DNA of 64,000 bases from Candidatus Parcubacteria bacterium (GTDB lineage Bacteria > Patescibacteriota > Minisyncoccia > Phycocordibacterales > Phycocordibacteraceae), in assembly GCA_034666125.1 (NCBI GenBank), contig JAXDML010000009.1, positions 975-64,974 on the forward strand, given 5' to 3'. Made by a program: the position numbers and the translations under genes. A model generated the notes under the pieces. The model saw nothing but the letters and a program-made list of their open reading frames with translations. It was not told the DNA's origin and did not search any database. The number at the start of each line of letters is the position of its first letter. Positions within the stretch are counted from its first letter, which is position 1. This document shows positions 2,982 through 43,665 of this stretch, piece after piece.

Positions 2982-3020
2982 GACTTTTCAAGCCACTCGT
3001 AACGTTTAAGTCAGTGACGG

Positions 3021-3043
3021 CCGTCTGGGACGACGTTGGAATC
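3021..3043. repeat. Copy 1 of conserved 25-bp site (CCGTCTGGGACGACGTTGGAATC), immediately 3' of the stop of the 3045..3509 gene
   Basis: Direct sequence comparison with copies at 3531, 4135, 4798 and 42263; the core CTGGGACGAYGTTGGAA is shared by copies 1, 3 and 4, with one substitution each in copies 2 (CTTTGG) and 5 (GACAAT). Confidence 0.6.
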
Positions 3044-3044
3044 T

Positions 3045-3509
3045 TTATGCCTTGTAGACTGGCAATACTGTAGACCCCTCAGGAATAACGTACTGGTCCG
3101 AAAATTCCTCAATAAAGGCCAGCTCCTTTTCTACACGCTTTGGCCGGCTTCGATTATGAATATTTCGGACACATGACGCACGGTCGTTTTCAAAGAATCT
3201 GAATTCGACTTCTGTAGTCGCGTTTAGTTTTGAGAGCAGTCGTCCCATCCCTTCCTGAGCCTCTCTCAGACGAGCCGGATCGCAGAAAAGTATATCCGCA
3301 ATAACGATATCCCTCCCTTCTTGCAAGGCAGCTTGTATATCCTCAAAGTATGCGCTTCCCTCAAACTCTAAAGACTTGCGCGGCCCAGTGGTCGCAGATT
3401 TATAGAAATCGTCGCATATAAGAGCATTGCCGAATTCCTTTTGGTGCGTTTCAAGATAGGTAGTCTTTCCTGACCCCGGTAAACCGGTAATAAAGAGTAT
3501 CTTGGGCAT
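3045..3509 (-). CDS. Small P-loop NTPase, kinase-like (154 aa)
   Basis: Walker A GLPGSGKTT at the N-terminus. Local GC is noticeably lower than the flanking genes. Confidence 0.55.
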   Translation of the reverse strand: MPKILFITGLPGSGKTTYLETHQKEFGNALICDDFYKSATTGPRKSLEFEGSAYFEDIQAALQEGRDIVIADILFCDPARLREAQEGMGRLLSKLNATTEVEFRFFENDRASCVRNIHNRSRPKRVEKELAFIEEFSDQYVIPEGSTVLPVYKA

Positions 3510-3518
3510 GCGTTCAGT

Positions 3519-4112
3519 CTACTCTACGAACTGGCCGCCTGGGACGACTTTGGAACCCTGGTCTGCAAATAAATAACTAAAGGCTTGTTCGCGCGGCTTC
3601 TCAAAGTCATGAGAGATATCGAAATATTGAATCCCGTACTTTCCGCATTCTGCTTCTAAGTACTTACTGAACTGGATCATTTCCTCAATTAGCTTCAGCA
3701 TTTCCTCGTCAGAATGGCCCTTCGTCCAATCAACTTGCCCTTGGTGATGAACTCTCACCAGAGCGAGCTTCTCTTCCTTGTTTAGTGCTGCATACCCGAT
3801 AAAACAACTTCTAATCTGATGACCTTCAAGCATTAGTTCACTTACTTGGCTTGGCAGGATCGAATCACCCTCAATGAGGAAGTCGCGCTCCTCGTGGAAG
3901 AAGAACCCCAGAAGAGGTTTCGCCACAGGCCACATCCGTTCAGCCCGTTCAATGAAGGGCTGGTCGTAGGCAATACCGAGTTGCGGCGTTCCATTGGCTA
4001 AACCGCCAAATAAAGCATCGAGTGGGAAATAAGGAACTCCCTTTTCAGAAACTGCTCTACGGGCAAGCAGCGTTTTCCCCGAACGCGAGGCCCCACCGAG
4101 TATATGGATCAT
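3519..4112 (-). CDS. Small P-loop NTPase, kinase-like (197 aa), a paralogous type
   Basis: Walker A GGASRSGKT. Low-GC. The repeat site overlaps its last codons. Confidence 0.55.
   Translation of the reverse strand: MIHILGGASRSGKTLLARRAVSEKGVPYFPLDALFGGLANGTPQLGIAYDQPFIERAERMWPVAKPLLGFFFHEERDFLIEGDSILPSQVSELMLEGHQIRSCFIGYAALNKEEKLALVRVHHQGQVDWTKGHSDEEMLKLIEEMIQFSKYLEAECGKYGIQYFDISHDFEKPREQAFSYLFADQGSKVVPGGQFVE
3531..3557. repeat. Copy 2 of the conserved site (CTGGCCGCCTGGGACGACTTTGGAACC)
   Basis: Sequence identity to the other copies; overlaps the 3' end of CDS 3519..4112. Confidence 0.55.
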
Positions 4113-4134
4113 GGAGAAAGTATACCTTCTGCGT

Positions 4135-4160
4135 CTGACTGCCTGGGACGATGTTGGAAA
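4135..4160. repeat. Copy 3 of the conserved site (CTGACTGCCTGGGACGATGTTGGAAA), lying between the divergent starts of CDS 3519..4112 and CDS 4225..4779
   Basis: Sequence identity to the other copies. Confidence 0.55.
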
Positions 4161-4224
4161 TTTTTATTGTGTAAATCGAGATTCTCAGTATAATCCAGAA
4201 GGACATTAGCGAAAGGAGGCCCGC

Positions 4225-4779
4225 ATGTCTGAGGGATATCTCTCATGGAGACGGGCCGCCTTTTGGCCACGTTACGAATCGGGGAAGGACAAAGGAATTG
4301 CCAGGGACGCAAGTCTCGTTTTCTTTGCAATCCTCACAATTTCATGTCTGTTCCGAGCAGTGTGGGGAGGACACCGGACCAACCTTCTCTGGCCACCCCT
4401 GGTTTACGCCGCATTCGGCGCGCTCTGGTGGATGGTTCTCATGGGTACGCGATGGTGGGGAAGATTCACTGCGCGACATCCGAAGGTCGCAAAGACGATC
4501 GACATCATCACCTTGATAACCGCGTGGGAGATTCGCCTGTTCATGGCGAGCGGCGGAGTGTCAAAGTGGCTTAAGAGATGGTGGTGGTGCCTTATGGGAA
4601 TATATTTGCTCGGACTTTATGGCTGGCAAGGTGAATTGCTCAGTCGGACGTACGGCATCGCCCTAATAATTACCGCCGAGGTCCTAAGCGAACTGACGGG
4701 CCTCTACCTCGCCTGGCAGGTTTGGAAGAGGCCCAAGGGTCCAGTCGAGCAAAGTGCGACCGAGCCGCCCCGGAATTAG
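4225..4779 (+). CDS. Trp-rich integral membrane protein (184 aa, about 4 TM)
   Basis: Strong SD (AAAGGAGG) 6 nt upstream of the ATG; hydrophobic helices. Low-GC. Confidence 0.55.
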   Translation: MSEGYLSWRRAAFWPRYESGKDKGIARDASLVFFAILTISCLFRAVWGGHRTNLLWPPLVYAAFGALWWMVLMGTRWWGRFTARHPKVAKTIDIITLITAWEIRLFMASGGVSKWLKRWWWCLMGIYLLGLYGWQGELLSRTYGIALIITAEVLSELTGLYLAWQVWKRPKGPVEQSATEPPRN

Positions 4780-4797
4780 GGCGGCATTTCTTTATTG

Positions 4798-4825
4798 CTG
4801 GCAGTCTGGGACGATGTTGGAACGC
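4798..4825. repeat. Copy 4 of the conserved site (CTGGCAGTCTGGGACGATGTTGGAACGC), 19 nt after the stop of CDS 4225..4779
   Basis: About 30-nt near-identity with copy 5 at 42263. Confidence 0.6.
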
Positions 4826-4896
4826 TGCTTCATAAACTCGTCACGCAAGCTCATCTATACTTTTCAGGTGCGCAGAACTAAAAACAACTAGCTAGT

Positions 4897-5154
4897 ATGT
4901 CTACTATCGTAAATAATCCAAACGGAGACAACGGTAACAGCTCGGCAGGATGGATTGTTGCCATTGTGGCAATTGTCATTCTTCTTCTGCTTGCCTTCTT
5001 CGTTTTCGGCGGCGACGCTGACGACGCACGTGATGCGGTACAGGATGTCCCTCAGAAGGTAGAAAACCGCGTCCAGAACGTCGATGTCCCTACCCCAATG
5101 AACAACACATTCAACAGCACCACCACGGTGAACTCCACCACAACCAATCCTTAA
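4897..5154 (+). CDS. Small membrane protein (85 aa), N/T-rich tail
   Basis: One TM helix (WIVAIVAIVILLLLAFFVF), followed by a terminator hairpin. The overlapping antisense ORF 4888..5193 is less plausible. Confidence 0.4.
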   Translation: MSTIVNNPNGDNGNSSAGWIVAIVAIVILLLLAFFVFGGDADDARDAVQDVPQKVENRVQNVDVPTPMNNTFNSTTTVNSTTTNP

Positions 5155-5168
5155 GCTGATCTGAGTGC

Positions 5169-5205
5169 AATGTCCCCGAACCGTCGGGGACATTTGCTTA
5201 TTAAT
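5169..5205 (+). terminator. Rho-independent terminator-like hairpin (AATGTCCCCGA..TCGGGGACATT) followed by a T-rich run
   Basis: Perfect 11-bp inverted repeat followed by TGCTTATTAATATCTT. Confidence 0.4.
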
Positions 5206-5284
5206 ATCTTGGCGTACTGAGTTTCGAACTAATTCGTGGGACGTAAATATACAGTTTTTCAGTAAATCGTTATAATTCCTTCAT

Positions 5285-5605
5285 ATGTTCATCCGCTATT
5301 CGGCCGGTATCATACTCCTCCTGGTCCTCGGATACGGCTCCGTGAAGGCCTGGCCGCTCCTTCGGGGCCCGGAAATACGCCTTGAAACGGAAGTCACCGG
5401 GTCCGCGCTGGGAGTCATCACCCTCTCCGGGCGCGCCCTCCATACCGAGACCCTGCTCCTGAACGGCGGCATCCTGCTTATCGACGGCGAAGGGCGCTTC
5501 GAGAAGACCCTGACGCTCCCGCCCGGGGGCGCTATACTGTCTTTAACGGCGACGGATCGCTTCGGCAGGAGCGTCTATGAGCGACGTGAGGTGTTCGTTC
5601 CTTAG
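5285..5605 (+). CDS. Hypothetical exported/membrane-anchored protein (106 aa)
   Basis: N-terminal hydrophobic segment (IILLLVLGYGSVKA). Precedes recA. Confidence 0.45.
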   Translation: MFIRYSAGIILLLVLGYGSVKAWPLLRGPEIRLETEVTGSALGVITLSGRALHTETLLLNGGILLIDGEGRFEKTLTLPPGGAILSLTATDRFGRSVYERREVFVP

Positions 5606-8776: not shown

Positions 8777-9445
8777 CTAACCCTTACGATCTATTTGCGC
8801 TTCGCAGGCAGCCGTTCCTCCTTTGCCGAAGAAATTAAGCCTGTAGGTCGCGCTCTGTTCCGGCTTGTGTGTCAGACTGCCCTTTGGCTTGTAGCGCTTC
8901 TTCTGGTGGATGTCGAAGCCGTGCGCATAGTCAACCGTGAGAAGCGCATAGTCCGCCGCTACGCTCGTCCACGCGAGTTTTACGGACCCATTAACCTTAT
9001 TCTTGGACTTGTCGACGGCTTTGAGCGTACAGGTCGGCTTGCCTGTATTAGGTATTTCAAGAGAACGTTTAGTTTTTTTGACCGTAACTTTGAGCGTTTC
9101 CTGGTCTGAGTATATGACCTGTCCCTGATCGATACTTCGCCCGTCCTTATATTTAAGCTGGGTGCAGTACAACATATACTTCGTTGTTTTCTGCGGAGTA
9201 AGCGTAAGCTCCCCGTATTGTCCCACGTTATCCCTCAGCAATTTCCCATCGTTATTCGTATCATCTCGCAACTGACAATTGGGTTTCCCCGAGACATTCC
9301 AGATCAGGGTAACGCTTTCGCCGGACAAGATCTCTGCAGAACTTGAGGTGAAGAGGTTAATACGTACTTTTGAAGCGGCGCCAGCGGTAGAAGGCACTAG
9401 GAAAATACACGCAAGGAGAACGACGGAAAATATGTTTCTATGCAT
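8777..9445 (-). CDS. Secreted hypothetical protein (222 aa)
   Basis: Signal peptide (MHRNIFSVVLLACIFLVPSTAGAAS). Confidence 0.5.
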   Translation of the reverse strand: MHRNIFSVVLLACIFLVPSTAGAASKVRINLFTSSSAEILSGESVTLIWNVSGKPNCQLRDDTNNDGKLLRDNVGQYGELTLTPQKTTKYMLYCTQLKYKDGRSIDQGQVIYSDQETLKVTVKKTKRSLEIPNTGKPTCTLKAVDKSKNKVNGSVKLAWTSVAADYALLTVDYAHGFDIHQKKRYKPKGSLTHKPEQSATYRLNFFGKGGTAACEAQIDRKG

Positions 9446-9448
9446 GCC

Positions 9449-9835
9449 TCAAACTTTAGCATTTTCTGGAGATTTGGCAAGGCGGCTCCCGAGCCGTAAA
9501 GCGATATACAGCAGTACGCCGTAAAAGACGAAGCCAAATATTCCGAGAAGAACCGCGCCGCGCAGGGAAAGCTCTTGCACCATACCGGGGAAGGCCAGTA
9601 CCAGGCCACCTGCCAGAGAGATAAAGTAGATACCTATAACTTTGGCGCATTCTAACCTCGCTATCTTTTCTCGCTTGATAGACGAATGGATCAACCCGAG
9701 AGCCACCGCAAATACTAGAGGAATAATGAGGGTGGCAAAGCCGACTGGCACGAACTTATGAGAGATGCCGCTTAGTACAACCAACAGGAGCCCGAGGGTG
9801 TAGCCGCTTACCACTATCCTTTTAAGGATGTTCAT
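9449..9835 (-). CDS. Small integral membrane protein (about 4 TM)
   Basis: Hydrophobic profile. Confidence 0.5.
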   Translation of the reverse strand: MNILKRIVVSGYTLGLLLVVLSGISHKFVPVGFATLIIPLVFAVALGLIHSSIKREKIARLECAKVIGIYFISLAGGLVLAFPGMVQELSLRGAVLLGIFGFVFYGVLLYIALRLGSRLAKSPENAKV

Positions 9836-42262: not shown

Positions 42263-42290
42263 TTGGCAGTCTGGGACAATGTTGGAACCG
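42263..42290. repeat. Copy 5 of the conserved site (TTGGCAGTCTGGGACAATGTTGGAACCG), abutting the NUDIX gene stop
   Basis: About 30-nt near-identity with copy 4. Confidence 0.6.
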
Positions 42291-42725
42291 CTACTTAACT
42301 TCCTCGGTGTAGCTAATACTATCAATATAGTTCTTCAGAAAAGTCCGGTGAAAATCAAGGGTATCTTCAGGCAATTTGTTTATGGGATAAAATTGCCATC
42401 CCTCACACTTATGCGGTTCACAATTTTTTATTTCACCTTCGTATTTTTCACACAAGACTGCAAATCCAAGGAATAAGACTCTCTCTTTTACGTAATGAAT
42501 AGAATTTACCGTAATCACGTTACCTTTCAGCATTGTAACGCCAACCTCTTCTTCAAGCTCGCGCTTAGACGCTTCTAAAATATTTTCCCCATTTTCTATT
42601 TGACCCCCAGGTAATGCGAAATAGCCCGAATGACTTGTATTAGTTCTTTTTCCTAAAAGAACTTTGTCTCCATTTAGTACAATTACTGCAACTCCTGCAT
42701 CAAGATTTGATGGATGGTTTCCCAT
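42291..42725 (-). CDS. NUDIX hydrolase
   Basis: Nudix box GGQIENGENILEASKRELEEEVG. Gene is markedly low-GC. Confidence 0.8.
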   Translation of the reverse strand: MGNHPSNLDAGVAVIVLNGDKVLLGKRTNTSHSGYFALPGGQIENGENILEASKRELEEEVGVTMLKGNVITVNSIHYVKERVLFLGFAVLCEKYEGEIKNCEPHKCEGWQFYPINKLPEDTLDFHRTFLKNYIDSISYTEEVK

Positions 42726-42768: not shown

Positions 42769-42789
42769 CTGGCAGACTACGTTTTGAAC
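42769..42789. repeat. Degenerate/truncated copy of the conserved site (CTGGCAGACTACGTTTTGAAC), upstream of the NUDIX gene
   Basis: Shares CTGGCAG..CT..ACG..TT.GAAC with the consensus; weaker. Confidence 0.3.
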
Positions 42790-42855: not shown

Positions 42856-43665
42856 CTATTTGATCTCGTACGTGATGCTGACGTTCACGACCGATTCGTT
42901 CTGTCCTTGCGGAAGCGGGACAGCAGGGCGCGCCGCCATATCCATGGCTACCCCTCCGAAAGCTTTGTTCATGCTTTCGTACATCGGCATCGCATCGCCG
43001 TTCTCGCTGAAGGAAACAACGTCGCCGAGACGCACATGGAGCTGTTTGGCGAGGATATGAGCCTTCTCGCGCGCGACCTCGATGGCCTTGCCGCGCGCTT
43101 CCTCCATGACCTCTGAGTCGTCGTCCACCTGGAAGTCGGGCCCGGTGGTGTTCTGTACGCCTGCGGTGCCGAGCGCGGCGAGCACGCCAGCCGCCAGGTC
43201 GGTATTCCGAATCTTCACCGTTACCGTCTGGCTTACCTGGTACCCGACGATCTTCGGCGAGCCCTGCACGCACGGGAAGCCCGGACGGCATGGCTGGAGG
43301 GTCTCGTACTGCGGATTCGTCTGATACCCGGCCGCCTGCACGTCCTTGTCCTCGATGCCGAGCGCGCGGATGGCATCGAGCGCGGCGGTCGCCTTCCTGC
43401 TTGCCGCGTCCTGCGCCTCGGCTACGGTGCCCGCGGTCTCCTGCACCGTGAATACGACGTGCGCGATGGTCGGCGGGGTCTCGGCCTTACCGGTGCCGGT
43501 GACCGTGACCACGTTCGGACCGGCATACGGCGACTTGCCCATGCGGTCGAAGGCGTCGACCGTCTTCGCGAGGAGGAAGAGCGCGAGGAGAACGAGTACC
43601 GCGACGACCGCGTACCCGAGCAATTTCCCCTGGTCGTTGACGAATTTCTTCAAGGTTTCGTTCAT
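42856..43665 (-). CDS. SIMPL-domain (DUF541/YggE-like) periplasmic protein
   Basis: N-terminal TM, then the SIMPL pattern (VTVTGTGKAETPPTIAHVVFTV..). Confidence 0.65.
   Translation of the reverse strand: MNETLKKFVNDQGKLLGYAVVAVLVLLALFLLAKTVDAFDRMGKSPYAGPNVVTVTGTGKAETPPTIAHVVFTVQETAGTVAEAQDAASRKATAALDAIRALGIEDKDVQAAGYQTNPQYETLQPCRPGFPCVQGSPKIVGYQVSQTVTVKIRNTDLAAGVLAALGTAGVQNTTGPDFQVDDDSEVMEEARGKAIEVAREKAHILAKQLHVRLGDVVSFSENGDAMPMYESMNKAFGGVAMDMAARPAVPLPQGQNESVVNVSITYEIK

Follow-up and report, generated by a model that had tools for sequence, protein, structure and literature searches.

Single-gene cassette arrays closed by a copy of the tRNA-Gln 3' end in Paceibacteria genome assemblies

Sequence comparison shows that a repeated site of 25 to 35 bp marks the boundaries of single-gene mobile cassettes, which pile up in arrays closed by a copy of the tRNA-Gln 3' end. 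This integron-like gene-capture layout recurs in the many Paceibacteria (Parcubacteria) genome assemblies sampled here, and we found no paper in the searchable literature that holds the sequence or describes such arrays. The starting point was a 64,000-nucleotide stretch of Candidatus Parcubacteria contig JAXDML010000009.1 (here, the window). A sequence-only reading had noted in it an AT-richer island between ftsK and recA, divided into three small gene units by four same-strand copies of a short site, with a fifth copy and a degenerate copy flanking a low-GC NUDIX gene 38 kb away. It proposed an integron-type or other site-specific recombination cassette array of promoter-less foreign genes, or alternatively a new regulatory or processing site.

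The observation itself held up. A search of the window with the pattern CTGGCMGYCTGGGACGAYGTTGGAA, allowing up to 3 mismatches, gave exactly five hits, all on the + strand, against 0.00 expected from 100 shuffles, and the 17-nt core of the site gave the same five. Start-to-start spacings within the island are 514, 604, and 663 bp, and GC content falls from 0.60 to 0.67 in ftsK and recA to 0.45 to 0.56 over approximately positions 3000 to 5250. The open reading frames (ORFs) were as described, but four points required correction. The island contains a fourth unit, an 85-aa gene closed by a degenerate short site. A 106-aa core gene (p106) lies between the island and recA. The degenerate copy beyond the NUDIX gene is real, but it is a different, shorter type of site (S) rather than a decayed copy of the long site (M). 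Finally, the description of the genes as promoter-less is not supported: the + cassettes carry hairpin terminators, and in other genomes many cassettes have TTGACA or extended -10 boxes just after the site.

Features of the two cassette arrays in the window. Positions are those of the window; M, long site; S, short terminal site; E values are from nhmmer.
Position	Strand	Feature	Description	E value
3017..3041	+	M1	Long site farthest from S in array 1; left part degenerate (ACGGCCG where the consensus has CTGGCAG); begins 36 nt after the ftsK stop codon	2.8e-08
3045..3509	-	Gene of cassette 1	154-aa P-loop kinase (Pfam AAA_33), GC 0.46; stop codon 3 nt from M1, ATG 22 nt from M2	
3531..3555	+	M2	Overlaps the last codons of the 197-aa gene	
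3519..4112	-	Gene of cassette 2	197 aa, P-loop (GGASRSGKT) recognized by eye, no Pfam family, GC 0.49	
4135..4159	+	M3		
4225..4779	+	Gene of cassette 3	184-aa Trp-rich membrane protein, no Pfam family	
4764..4785	+	Terminator of cassette 3	Hairpin plus T-run, directly before M4	
4798..4822	+	M4	Perfect match to the consensus; long site nearest to S	5.5e-11
4897..5154	+	Gene of cassette 4	85-aa small membrane protein, no Pfam family	
5169..5194	+	Terminator of cassette 4	11-bp stem	
5209..5229	+	S1	Short terminal site (TTGGCGTACTGAGTTTCGAAC), degenerate; matches the S consensus CTGGCAGACTAGGGATCGAAC (reverse complement of the tRNA-Gln 3' end) at 14 of 21 positions; same place as the better-preserved S of locus L121 (19241)	
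5248..5276	+	Promoter-like site	TATACA-17-TATAAT, for p106 (5285-5605) and recA	
42263..42287	+	M5	Long site of the single-cassette array 2	4.8e-09
42291..42725	-	Cassette gene of array 2	144-aa NUDIX hydrolase, GC 0.37	
42769..42789	+	S2	Short terminal site (CTGGCAGACTACGTTTTGAAC), next to the SIMPL gene (42856-43665, -); orthologous S in locus L233	

To determine how widely the site occurs, we searched a genome collection and recovered at least 118 stretches, about 95 of which lie in Patescibacteria metagenome-assembled genomes labeled Kaiser-, Nomura-, Wolfe-, or Lloydbacteria, Paceibacterota, and others (loci are designated here by L numbers). The full site M is an asymmetric sequence of about 35 bp, TTGCTGGCAGTCTGGGACGATGTTGGAACCTTT. 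All 136 adjacent M pairs less than 3 kb apart share one orientation. The 147 units have a median length of 602 bp, and each holds one ORF with a median coding fraction of 0.77, on either strand (86 against 55). Within M, TGGGACGATGTTGGAAC is nearly invariant even in the 120 weaker copies found only by profile search, while the left part varies, a pattern of conservation like that of a protein-binding site. Because the loci were found with a pattern that fixes 17 bases and restricts two more, the apparent conservation of those positions is partly circular, and the profile search mitigates this only in part. There is also a weak polarity: in 12 of 14 arrays the M score falls with distance from S, and in the window M1 to M3 carry 4 to 5 mismatches.

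The sequence-only reading did not recognize that the arrays, which have the form (M-cassette)n-S, end in a copy of the tRNA-Gln 3' end. S, ATTGCTGG[C/G]AGACTAGGGATCGAAC, is the reverse complement of roughly the last 21 to 26 nt of tRNA-Gln(UUG), from the T-loop to the 3' end, plus a short trailer. Of 35 S sites found by regex, 34 lie 140 to 880 bp beyond the last M on the same strand, with no M after them; about a third are real tRNA-Gln genes, the commonest anchor, and the rest are isolated 3'-end copies. Of the 22 tRNA-Gln genes in the loci, 21 have the array on their 3' side with M on the opposite strand. Neither window array lies at a tRNA, nor do roughly two thirds of all arrays with an S; these carry an isolated copy of the tRNA-Gln end instead. 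Alignment score alone is weak evidence for the identity of the terminal copies, since those of the window and L121 score only 1.7 to 2.7 sd above shuffles, with S1 at about 1.7 sd and itself one of the seeds used to write the S regex; the claim rests instead on the 35-site survey. In 577 kb of DNA not selected for the site, the S regex hit only 5 times, 4 of them at arrays or hotspots. Among the tRNA tails compared with M, those of tRNA-Gln gave the 16 best alignment scores (23.5 to 31, against a shuffle mean of 14.4 and a 99th percentile of 22). M and S share the left end TTGCTGG.AG as well as GGGA and GAACC, M having about 5 extra bases and several substitutions. M may derive from S, but this is inferred from resemblance alone.

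We next asked whether related genomes differ in gene content exactly at these sites, a comparison proposed beforehand as a test of the cassette interpretation. The ftsK|p106 site is empty in L120 (85% FtsK identity; 3-nt gap) and in L123 but is filled by 13 different genes with M copies and an S in L121; in empty-site relatives p106 starts 3 to 6 nt after ftsK. The SIMPL|secE site is empty in L232 and holds a different array with M copies and S in L233. A third hotspot, xer|xth, is empty in at least 10 loci, is a solo S in L160, and reads xer-(M-c)n-S-xth in L021, L162, and L216. Whole cassettes also recur in other genomes: L011 2900-3527 matches L094 7108-7740 at 88% identity, and L090 4981-5743 matches L003 6201-5442 at 78.5%. 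In both pairs, homology runs from M to M and the flanks are unrelated. Consistent with a shared cassette pool, array GC is 0.470 +/- 0.034 whatever the backbone GC (0.375 to 0.60), and the 140 cassette proteins hit 61 Pfam families of small enzymes, including short-chain dehydrogenases, HAD hydrolases, NUDIX, HD, and alpha/beta hydrolases. All evidence for mobility is comparative, at 78 to 88% identity at best, and no excised circle or recent event was seen.

The interpretation offered by the sequence-only reading was partly supported: the site demarcates mobile single-gene cassettes of foreign composition and, as that reading stated, no integrase lies in the window, but the system is not of the integron type. 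Like integrons, including integrase-less CALIN arrays, these loci have single-gene cassettes each with one site in fixed polarity, a distinct site at one end, diverse small accessory enzymes as cargo, and rapid turnover between relatives. However, M does not fold as an attC site does. Its minimum free energy is -0.3 or 0 kcal/mol, worse than shuffles (z +1.1 and +1.2), flanked copies give z between -1.05 and +0.34, and M is conserved in sequence rather than in structure. Moreover, a Xer-based profile HMM run against all ORFs of 80 aa or more in the window and in about 800 kb of array loci found only one tyrosine recombinase, a Xer gene in L021 (4195-5142); Pfam scans of the window ORFs showed no recombinase, and clustering of 724 ORFs neighboring the arrays gave only housekeeping families. 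Integrons also differ in that here genes lie on both strands and appear to carry their own promoters and terminators, there are several arrays per genome, and the anchor is a tRNA-Gln 3' end.

We favor, with moderate confidence, a model in which a recombinase encoded elsewhere in the genome recombines M with S or with another M, inserting, excising, and reshuffling circular cassettes downstream of the tRNA end or its copy, with the exchange probably in the shared left third. The architecture, the fixed polarity, the tRNA-Gln anchoring, the precise empty sites, the solo S, and the recurrence of cassettes between unrelated neighbors come directly from the analysis; that the reaction is conservative site-specific recombination, where the exchange occurs, and which enzyme performs it, including any action of Xer on the site, are inferences. 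The conserved single Xer-type tyrosine recombinase of these genomes is a candidate only. It shows 62 to 89% identity across 80 metagenome loci, but only 3 of these 80 have M nearby. M also has no dyad symmetry, unlike the core sites of tyrosine or serine recombinases. The model does not explain how isolated S copies reach places that lack a tRNA, and the empty sites contained no S-like or M-like target.

The main rival explanation is that M and S are not recognized by a dedicated recombinase but provide only portable homology. In this view, cassettes are gained, lost, and swapped after natural transformation by RecA-dependent recombination, or by slippage, between the 30- to 35-bp repeats and between flanking core genes, the repeats staying uniform because cassettes circulate in a shared pool. 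No recombinase gene is linked to the arrays, RecA and RecO are present in the window, and Patescibacteria are reported to be naturally competent (PMC10633639). The same hotspots are occupied in non-sister genomes (the window and L121) while a closer relative (L120) is empty, which transfer through flanking core-gene homology would fit, and M-to-M homology boundaries are equally expected if RecA simply uses the repeats. However, this view does not explain why one end of nearly every array is a copy of the tRNA-Gln 3' end, why the real tRNA-Gln is the commonest anchor, why polarity is absolute among the adjacent pairs, or why 17 bases are nearly invariant across lineages labeled as distant candidate phyla while neighboring bases vary. 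Furthermore, the solo S in L160, and any M-by-S exchange, would have to use only about 10 bp of identity. We consider this explanation unlikely.

More doubtful still is the possibility that the arrays are immobile fossils of classical integrase-bearing elements, such as prophages or integrative elements, that integrated repeatedly into tRNA-Gln, M and S being old attL/attR repeats whose integrases and most cargo were deleted. The location of arrays on the 3' side of tRNA-Gln, the direct repeats related to the tRNA 3' end, and the degeneracy of many copies, especially far from S, fit this view. Against it, units are uniformly single-gene and show no phage or integrase remnants, the same M consensus is shared across the many lineages sampled although M is not the tRNA sequence, most arrays lie away from any tRNA, and content differs completely between relatives at three hotspots. 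In addition, no Patescibacteria-type M was found in the viral contigs of IMG/VR, the phage records of INPHARED, or the plasmid records of PLSDB.

The alternative that M is chiefly a regulatory or insulating element, for example a -35/UP-type promoter part or the binding site of a regulator or silencer of foreign genes, appears very unlikely as a primary role, although a secondary regulatory or processing role is not excluded. In a subset of + cassettes (seven exact regex hits; roughly two dozen by eye), the TTGGAA of M lies 18 nt before a conserved TGnTAGGTT box, followed by a Shine-Dalgarno sequence and an ATG; in - cassettes the ATG lies about 20 nt from M, with a TAnnnT box about 7 nt upstream of it. 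However, M keeps one orientation while genes face both ways, the distance from M to the gene start is variable or the gene end abuts M, many + cassettes have their own TTGACA box, and a consensus promoter scan of the window island showed no enrichment. Such a role does not explain the indels, the terminal S, or the tRNA-Gln anchoring.

Other known systems share some of these features. tRNA-targeted integrative islands and tandem accretions, such as cis-mobilizable elements of streptococci and tycheposon-type island arrays of Prochlorococcus, insert on the 3' side of a tRNA gene, a position that the present arrays take at 21 of the 22 tRNA-Gln genes in the loci but that neither window array, nor roughly two thirds of all arrays with an S, occupies. 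They likewise have direct repeats related to the tRNA 3' end, stack in tandem, and include units lacking their own integrase. Here, S fits the tRNA 3' segment but the repeated site M is a longer relative of it, units are single genes of about 0.6 kb, and no integrase-bearing partner element was found. The pdif modules of Acinetobacter plasmids and other elements that exploit the host Xer recombinase (IMEX) are also small gene modules bounded by short conserved sites, with the recombinase (host XerC/D) encoded elsewhere. However, dif-like sites, of roughly 28 bp, have two inverted 11-bp arms around a 6-bp (or 6- to 8-bp) spacer and alternate in orientation in pdif modules, whereas M shows at most 3 bp of symmetry around any center and never inverts, and the present arrays are chromosomal and scattered rather than on plasmids or at the terminus; a dif site was rejected for lack of dyad symmetry, the repeat and fold analyses also showing no dyad. 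The mobile regulatory cassettes (PeSL) of T4-type phages are small genes flanked by repeated promoter/terminator-type sequences that allow modular shuffling by homologous recombination, but the present system is cellular, its site is related to a tRNA end, it has a distinct terminal site, and its polarity is strict. A REP/MITE-type repeat is not supported, as M is not palindromic and its copies are confined to variable islands, with only 8 copies in the 577 kb of unselected DNA. Nor is a DNA uptake sequence, expected at about one copy per kb in both orientations, since the 64-kb window has 5 copies, all in two islands and on one strand.

Little is known about how Patescibacteria, with their tiny genomes, exchange genes. 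If the model holds, a simple sequence rule, M repeats closed by a tRNA-Gln-end copy, would locate their accessory-gene pool in any assembly and define cassette boundaries for hundreds of orphan genes. It would make testable whether integron-like gene capture evolved more than once and can work without a dedicated, linked integrase, and the sites would be natural candidates for a genetic tool (a landing pad plus a donor site) in a group where genetics has barely begun. Identifying the enzyme would reveal either a new job for Xer-type recombinases or a new recombinase. A bolder reading is possible, though we hold it only tentatively: Paceibacteria would run a gene-capture system that arose independently of integrons, in which the tRNA-Gln 3' end or its portable copy serves as docking site for cassettes carrying a site that resembles it, and the recombinase, not part of the element, may be the single, highly conserved housekeeping Xer of these minimal genomes or an enzyme class not yet linked to cassettes. 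This would then be a main route of accessory-gene flux in a large group of ultra-small, uncultivated bacteria.

Two further identities for the site were examined and rejected. Rfam searches found only tRNAs in the window and in 18 array loci, with nothing at E up to 10 around the NUDIX gene or at E up to 1 in the L021 array. M reads LAVWDDVGTF in one frame, with variation that looks synonymous, and the same 23-nt pattern occurs in Rhodobacteraceae and Myxococcus within the coding sequence of a prophage C5 DNA methyltransferase (..PVWDDVGTFDG..FPCQ..). In Patescibacteria, however, stop codons flank the site and it lies out of frame with neighboring genes, and we treat the resemblance as coincidence. 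Finally, a tblastn search of the loci with the four island cassette proteins returned only a non-array homologue of the 85-aa protein in L090, and the NUDIX protein had no homologue above 46% identity.

The repeated motif that the sequence-only reading had described is present. A search allowing up to 3 mismatches gave five hits within the window, all on one strand, against 0.00 expected from shuffles, and the core alone was searched with the same outcome. GC drops from 0.60-0.67 in ftsK and recA to 0.45-0.56 between about 3000 and 5250. The units of this island hold four genes, one of which, encoding an 85-aa protein, had not been counted in that reading. A core gene of 106 aa (here p106) separates the island from recA.

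To determine how widely the site is distributed, we scanned one genome per species and found at least 118 stretches. About 95 of them lie in Patescibacteria assemblies labeled Paceibacterota/Parcubacteria, Kaiser-, Nomura-, Wolfe- or Lloydbacteria, with some labeled Saccharibacteria. The remaining 20 or so (including loci L002, L004, L010, L017, L020 and L025), and almost all of the 27 hits in viral contigs (viral loci L124-L150), are the coding sequence of a prophage-borne C5 DNA methyltransferase of Rhodobacteraceae and Myxococcus (..PVWDDVGTFDG(R)PWRG..FPCQ..) and are unrelated to the Patescibacteria site. The same 23-nt pattern occurs inside that gene. Read in the same frame, the Patescibacteria site would give LAVWDDVGTF; the match is striking, but we judged it a coincidence. 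The Patescibacteria copies define a site of about 35 bp, here called M: TTGCTGGCAGTCTGGGACGATGTTGGAACCTTTnT. Because the search pattern fixed many positions, we also examined 120 weaker copies found only by a profile search. In these, TGGGACGATGTTGGAAC is almost invariant, with 3-16 mismatches per position in 120 copies, while the left part, TTGCTGGCAGTC, varies much more, with 19-67 mismatches per position. M has no dyad symmetry and no single-strand structure.

M occurs in arrays of up to at least 7 copies within a single 8-kb locus, and all 136 adjacent pairs less than 3 kb apart share orientation. The 147 intersite units have a median length of 602 bp, and each holds one open reading frame (ORF) filling about 77% of it, opposite to M in 86 cases and on the same strand in 55. 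Genes on the M strand usually follow a TTGACA box or a conserved TGnTAGGTT box and end in a hairpin terminator just before the next M, while genes on the other strand stop 3-10 nt from the TTGGAAC end of M and start about 20 nt from the next M. In a subset of unrelated cassettes (seven exact pattern matches and roughly two dozen by eye), M is followed by a conserved extension, CCTTTCTGCAAyATATGsTAGGTTCTGTCyAGA, and then by a Shine-Dalgarno sequence and an ATG. In these, the TTGGAA of M lies 18 nt before the TGnTAGGTT box, such that M may double as a -35 element. A purely regulatory role for M nevertheless fits the data as a whole less well than recombination does, and we consider it very unlikely. 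The cargo is diverse: the 140 cassette proteins hit 61 Pfam families (short-chain dehydrogenases, HAD, NUDIX, HD and alpha/beta hydrolases, peptidase S51, Ham1, isochorismatase and others), many hit none, and none is a recombinase. One "cassette" of locus L021, between an M and the terminal site, has a TTGACA promoter and a strong terminator but no ORF over about 250 nt; it may be a small RNA cassette, although a search of Rfam gave no match at E values up to 1. Array GC is 0.470 +/- 0.034 whatever the backbone GC (0.375-0.60), which suggests a shared cassette pool.

We next examined the tRNA genes in the loci, 22 of 42 of which are tRNA-Gln(UUG). In 21 of those 22, the array lies on the 3' side of the tRNA with M on the opposite strand. 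tRNA-Gln tails also give the 16 best alignment scores to M among the tRNA tails compared (23.5-31, against a shuffle mean of 14.4 and a 99th percentile of 22). A survey for the reverse complement of the tRNA-Gln 3' end, ATTGCTGG[C/G]AGACTAGGGATCGAAC (here called S), found 35 sites, of which 34 lie 140-880 bp beyond the last M on the same strand, with no M after them. About a third are living tRNA-Gln genes, and the rest are isolated copies that lose similarity inside the T-loop. Arrays therefore read (M-cassette)n-S, and both window arrays fit this form. The S that closes array 1 is degenerate and was one of the seeds used to write the search pattern for S, so it is weaker evidence, but the orthologous S in L121, a related locus, is clearer. 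The S that closes array 2 is the site that the sequence-only reading had described as a degenerate copy of the motif. In 577 kb of Paceibacteria DNA not selected for the site, the S pattern hits five times, and four of these hits are at arrays or hotspots. M and S align as follows:

M: TTGCTGGCAGTCT-GGGACGATGTTGGAACC
S: TTGCTGGGAGACTAGGGA-----TCGAACC

M therefore looks like a lengthened relative of the tRNA end. By our tally, isolated S copies mostly carry the M-like C in GG[C]AG (19 of 24), whereas living tRNAs keep G (10 of 11). At one hotspot shared by loci L019, L022, L083 and L101, the S copy is followed by sequence resembling the rest of a decayed tRNA-Gln, up to an anticodon-loop-like CTTGAAT; ARAGORN does not call it, and it may be a relic of a duplicated tRNA-Gln that seeded the array. 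In L011, an isolated S copy abuts the 3' end of a tRNA-Pro gene, separated by 6 nt, and other arrays lie 3' of tRNA-Pro (L080), tRNA-Met (L014) and tRNA-Ala (L042).

Three hotspots show alternative states in related genomes. At ftsK|p106, L120 (85% FtsK identity) and L123 (73%) have ftsK followed after 3-6 nt by p106, with no M or S, while L121 (79%) has about 7 kb with 13 other small genes, several M copies and variants, and an S. At SIMPL|secE, L232 is empty, with a 121-bp spacer, and L233 holds four other genes with M copies and an S next to SIMPL, as in the window. A further relative, L231, carries two genes there (TrmB-like, 244 aa; unknown, 300 aa) with no recognizable M or S; not all insertions at the hotspots use the site, or the sites have decayed. 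At xer|xth, at least 10 loci are empty, and L021, L162 and L216 read xer-(M-c)n-S-xth. L160 has a solo S (CTGGCAGACTGGGTATCGAAC) directly after the xer stop codon and before xth, with no cassette, which is either an emptied array or an unused docking site. In addition, two cassettes recur in different genomes with homology confined to one M-to-M unit and unrelated flanks, one shared by L011 and L094 at 88% identity and the other by L090 and L003 at 78.5% identity. An alternative explanation for these data could be RecA-dependent exchange between the repeats and between flanking core genes after transformation, which explains boundaries at M and shared hotspots. There is also weak evidence for polarity: M scores tend to fall with distance from S in 12 of 14 arrays, although the nearest-versus-farthest comparison is not significant (P = 0.19). 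In array 1, the M copy next to S is perfect and the others carry 4-5 mismatches.

Coordinates of features in the window and in loci (L numbers) from other assemblies
Sequence	Coordinates	Strand	Feature
Window	3017	+	M, array 1
Window	3045-3509	-	154-aa AAA_33 kinase
Window	3519-4112	-	197-aa P-loop protein
Window	3531	+	M, array 1
Window	4135	+	M, array 1
Window	4225-4779	+	184-aa Trp-rich membrane protein
Window	4798	+	M, array 1
Window	4897-5154	+	85-aa protein
Window	5209-5229		S, array 1
Window	5248-5285		S-proximal interval with the promoter-like site for p106 and recA
Window	5285-5605		p106
Window	8777-9835		Two low-GC genes between efp and rpsR
Window	42263	+	M, array 2
Window	42769-42789		S, array 2
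L120	12166-12170		ftsK|p106, empty
L123	8952-8959		ftsK|p106, empty
L231	4862-6636		Two genes at SIMPL|secE
L160	5919		Solo S at xer|xth
L021	about 3520-3770	-	Cassette without ORF
L011	2900-3527		Recurrent cassette, matched to L094
L094	7108-7740		Recurrent cassette, matched to L011
L090	4981-5743		Recurrent cassette, matched to L003
L003	6201-5442		Recurrent cassette, matched to L090
L011	2910 and 3518		Conserved extension after M (also in others not listed)
L090	6444 and 6781		Conserved extension after M
L094	7118		Conserved extension after M
L110	1787		Conserved extension after M
L117	6375		Conserved extension after M
L019	6212		S copy followed by decayed tRNA-Gln-like sequence
L022	1540		S copy followed by decayed tRNA-Gln-like sequence
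L083	3981		S copy followed by decayed tRNA-Gln-like sequence
L101	7329		S copy followed by decayed tRNA-Gln-like sequence
L011	4876-4976		Isolated S copy abutting tRNA-Pro

Searches for an enzyme linked to the arrays did not identify one. No tyrosine recombinase occurs in the window or in about 800 kb of array loci, apart from one Xer gene in L021 whose stop codon abuts an M. That Xer is highly conserved (62-89% identity in 80 metagenome loci), but only 3 of those loci have M nearby, and there is therefore no physical linkage. The genes that recur next to arrays are housekeeping genes: dnaX, dus, the CCA-adding enzyme and others. M is absent from the viral contigs, phage records and plasmid records searched.

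In light of these data, we consider it more likely than not that the architecture reflects conservative site-specific recombination between M and S, or between two M sites, catalyzed in trans by an unidentified enzyme. The features that point this way are a distinct docking site that is a tRNA 3' end, cassette-borne sites related to it, absolute polarity, precise empty and solo-S states, and a nearly invariant 17-nt block next to a variable block. The reaction itself, its catalysis in trans and the position of exchange are inferred, and no model considered explains how isolated S copies are seeded at sites that lack any similar target or how an asymmetric site would be handled by a known recombinase type. 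The exchange is probably in the shared left third, as inferred from the block of identity between M and S, the degenerate left parts of the first M in arrays (array 1 of the window, L094 and L011), and the solo S in L160. The main rival, RecA-dependent exchange, does not explain the tRNA-derived terminal site, the polarity or the conservation pattern, and we regard it as unlikely. That the arrays are decayed classical islands also fits less well, and we consider it still less likely.

The interpretation offered by the sequence-only reading, an integron-type or other site-specific recombination cassette array, is supported only in part. The system would work like an integron but fails two of the three integron features tested, as there is no adjacent IntI and no folded attC. 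It resembles tandem accretion at tRNA genes, but the repeat is not the tRNA sequence, the units are single genes, and most arrays are not at a tRNA. It resembles pdif/Xer modules in having the recombinase elsewhere, but it lacks dif symmetry and alternating orientation. Cassette arrays built at recombination sites are already known, but no paper in the literature that could be searched contains the sequence or describes such arrays in Patescibacteria.

Two further observations concern the surroundings of array 1. In the empty-site relatives L120 and L123, the close spacing of ftsK and p106 indicates that the two are probably cotranscribed, while in occupied genomes the S-proximal DNA supplies a new promoter-like site for p106 and recA. 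Elsewhere in the window, two further low-GC genes (222-aa secreted and 128-aa membrane proteins; GC, 0.49-0.50) lie between efp and rpsR, where the close relative L120 has only a 57-aa gene; this is a variable spot with no M or S.
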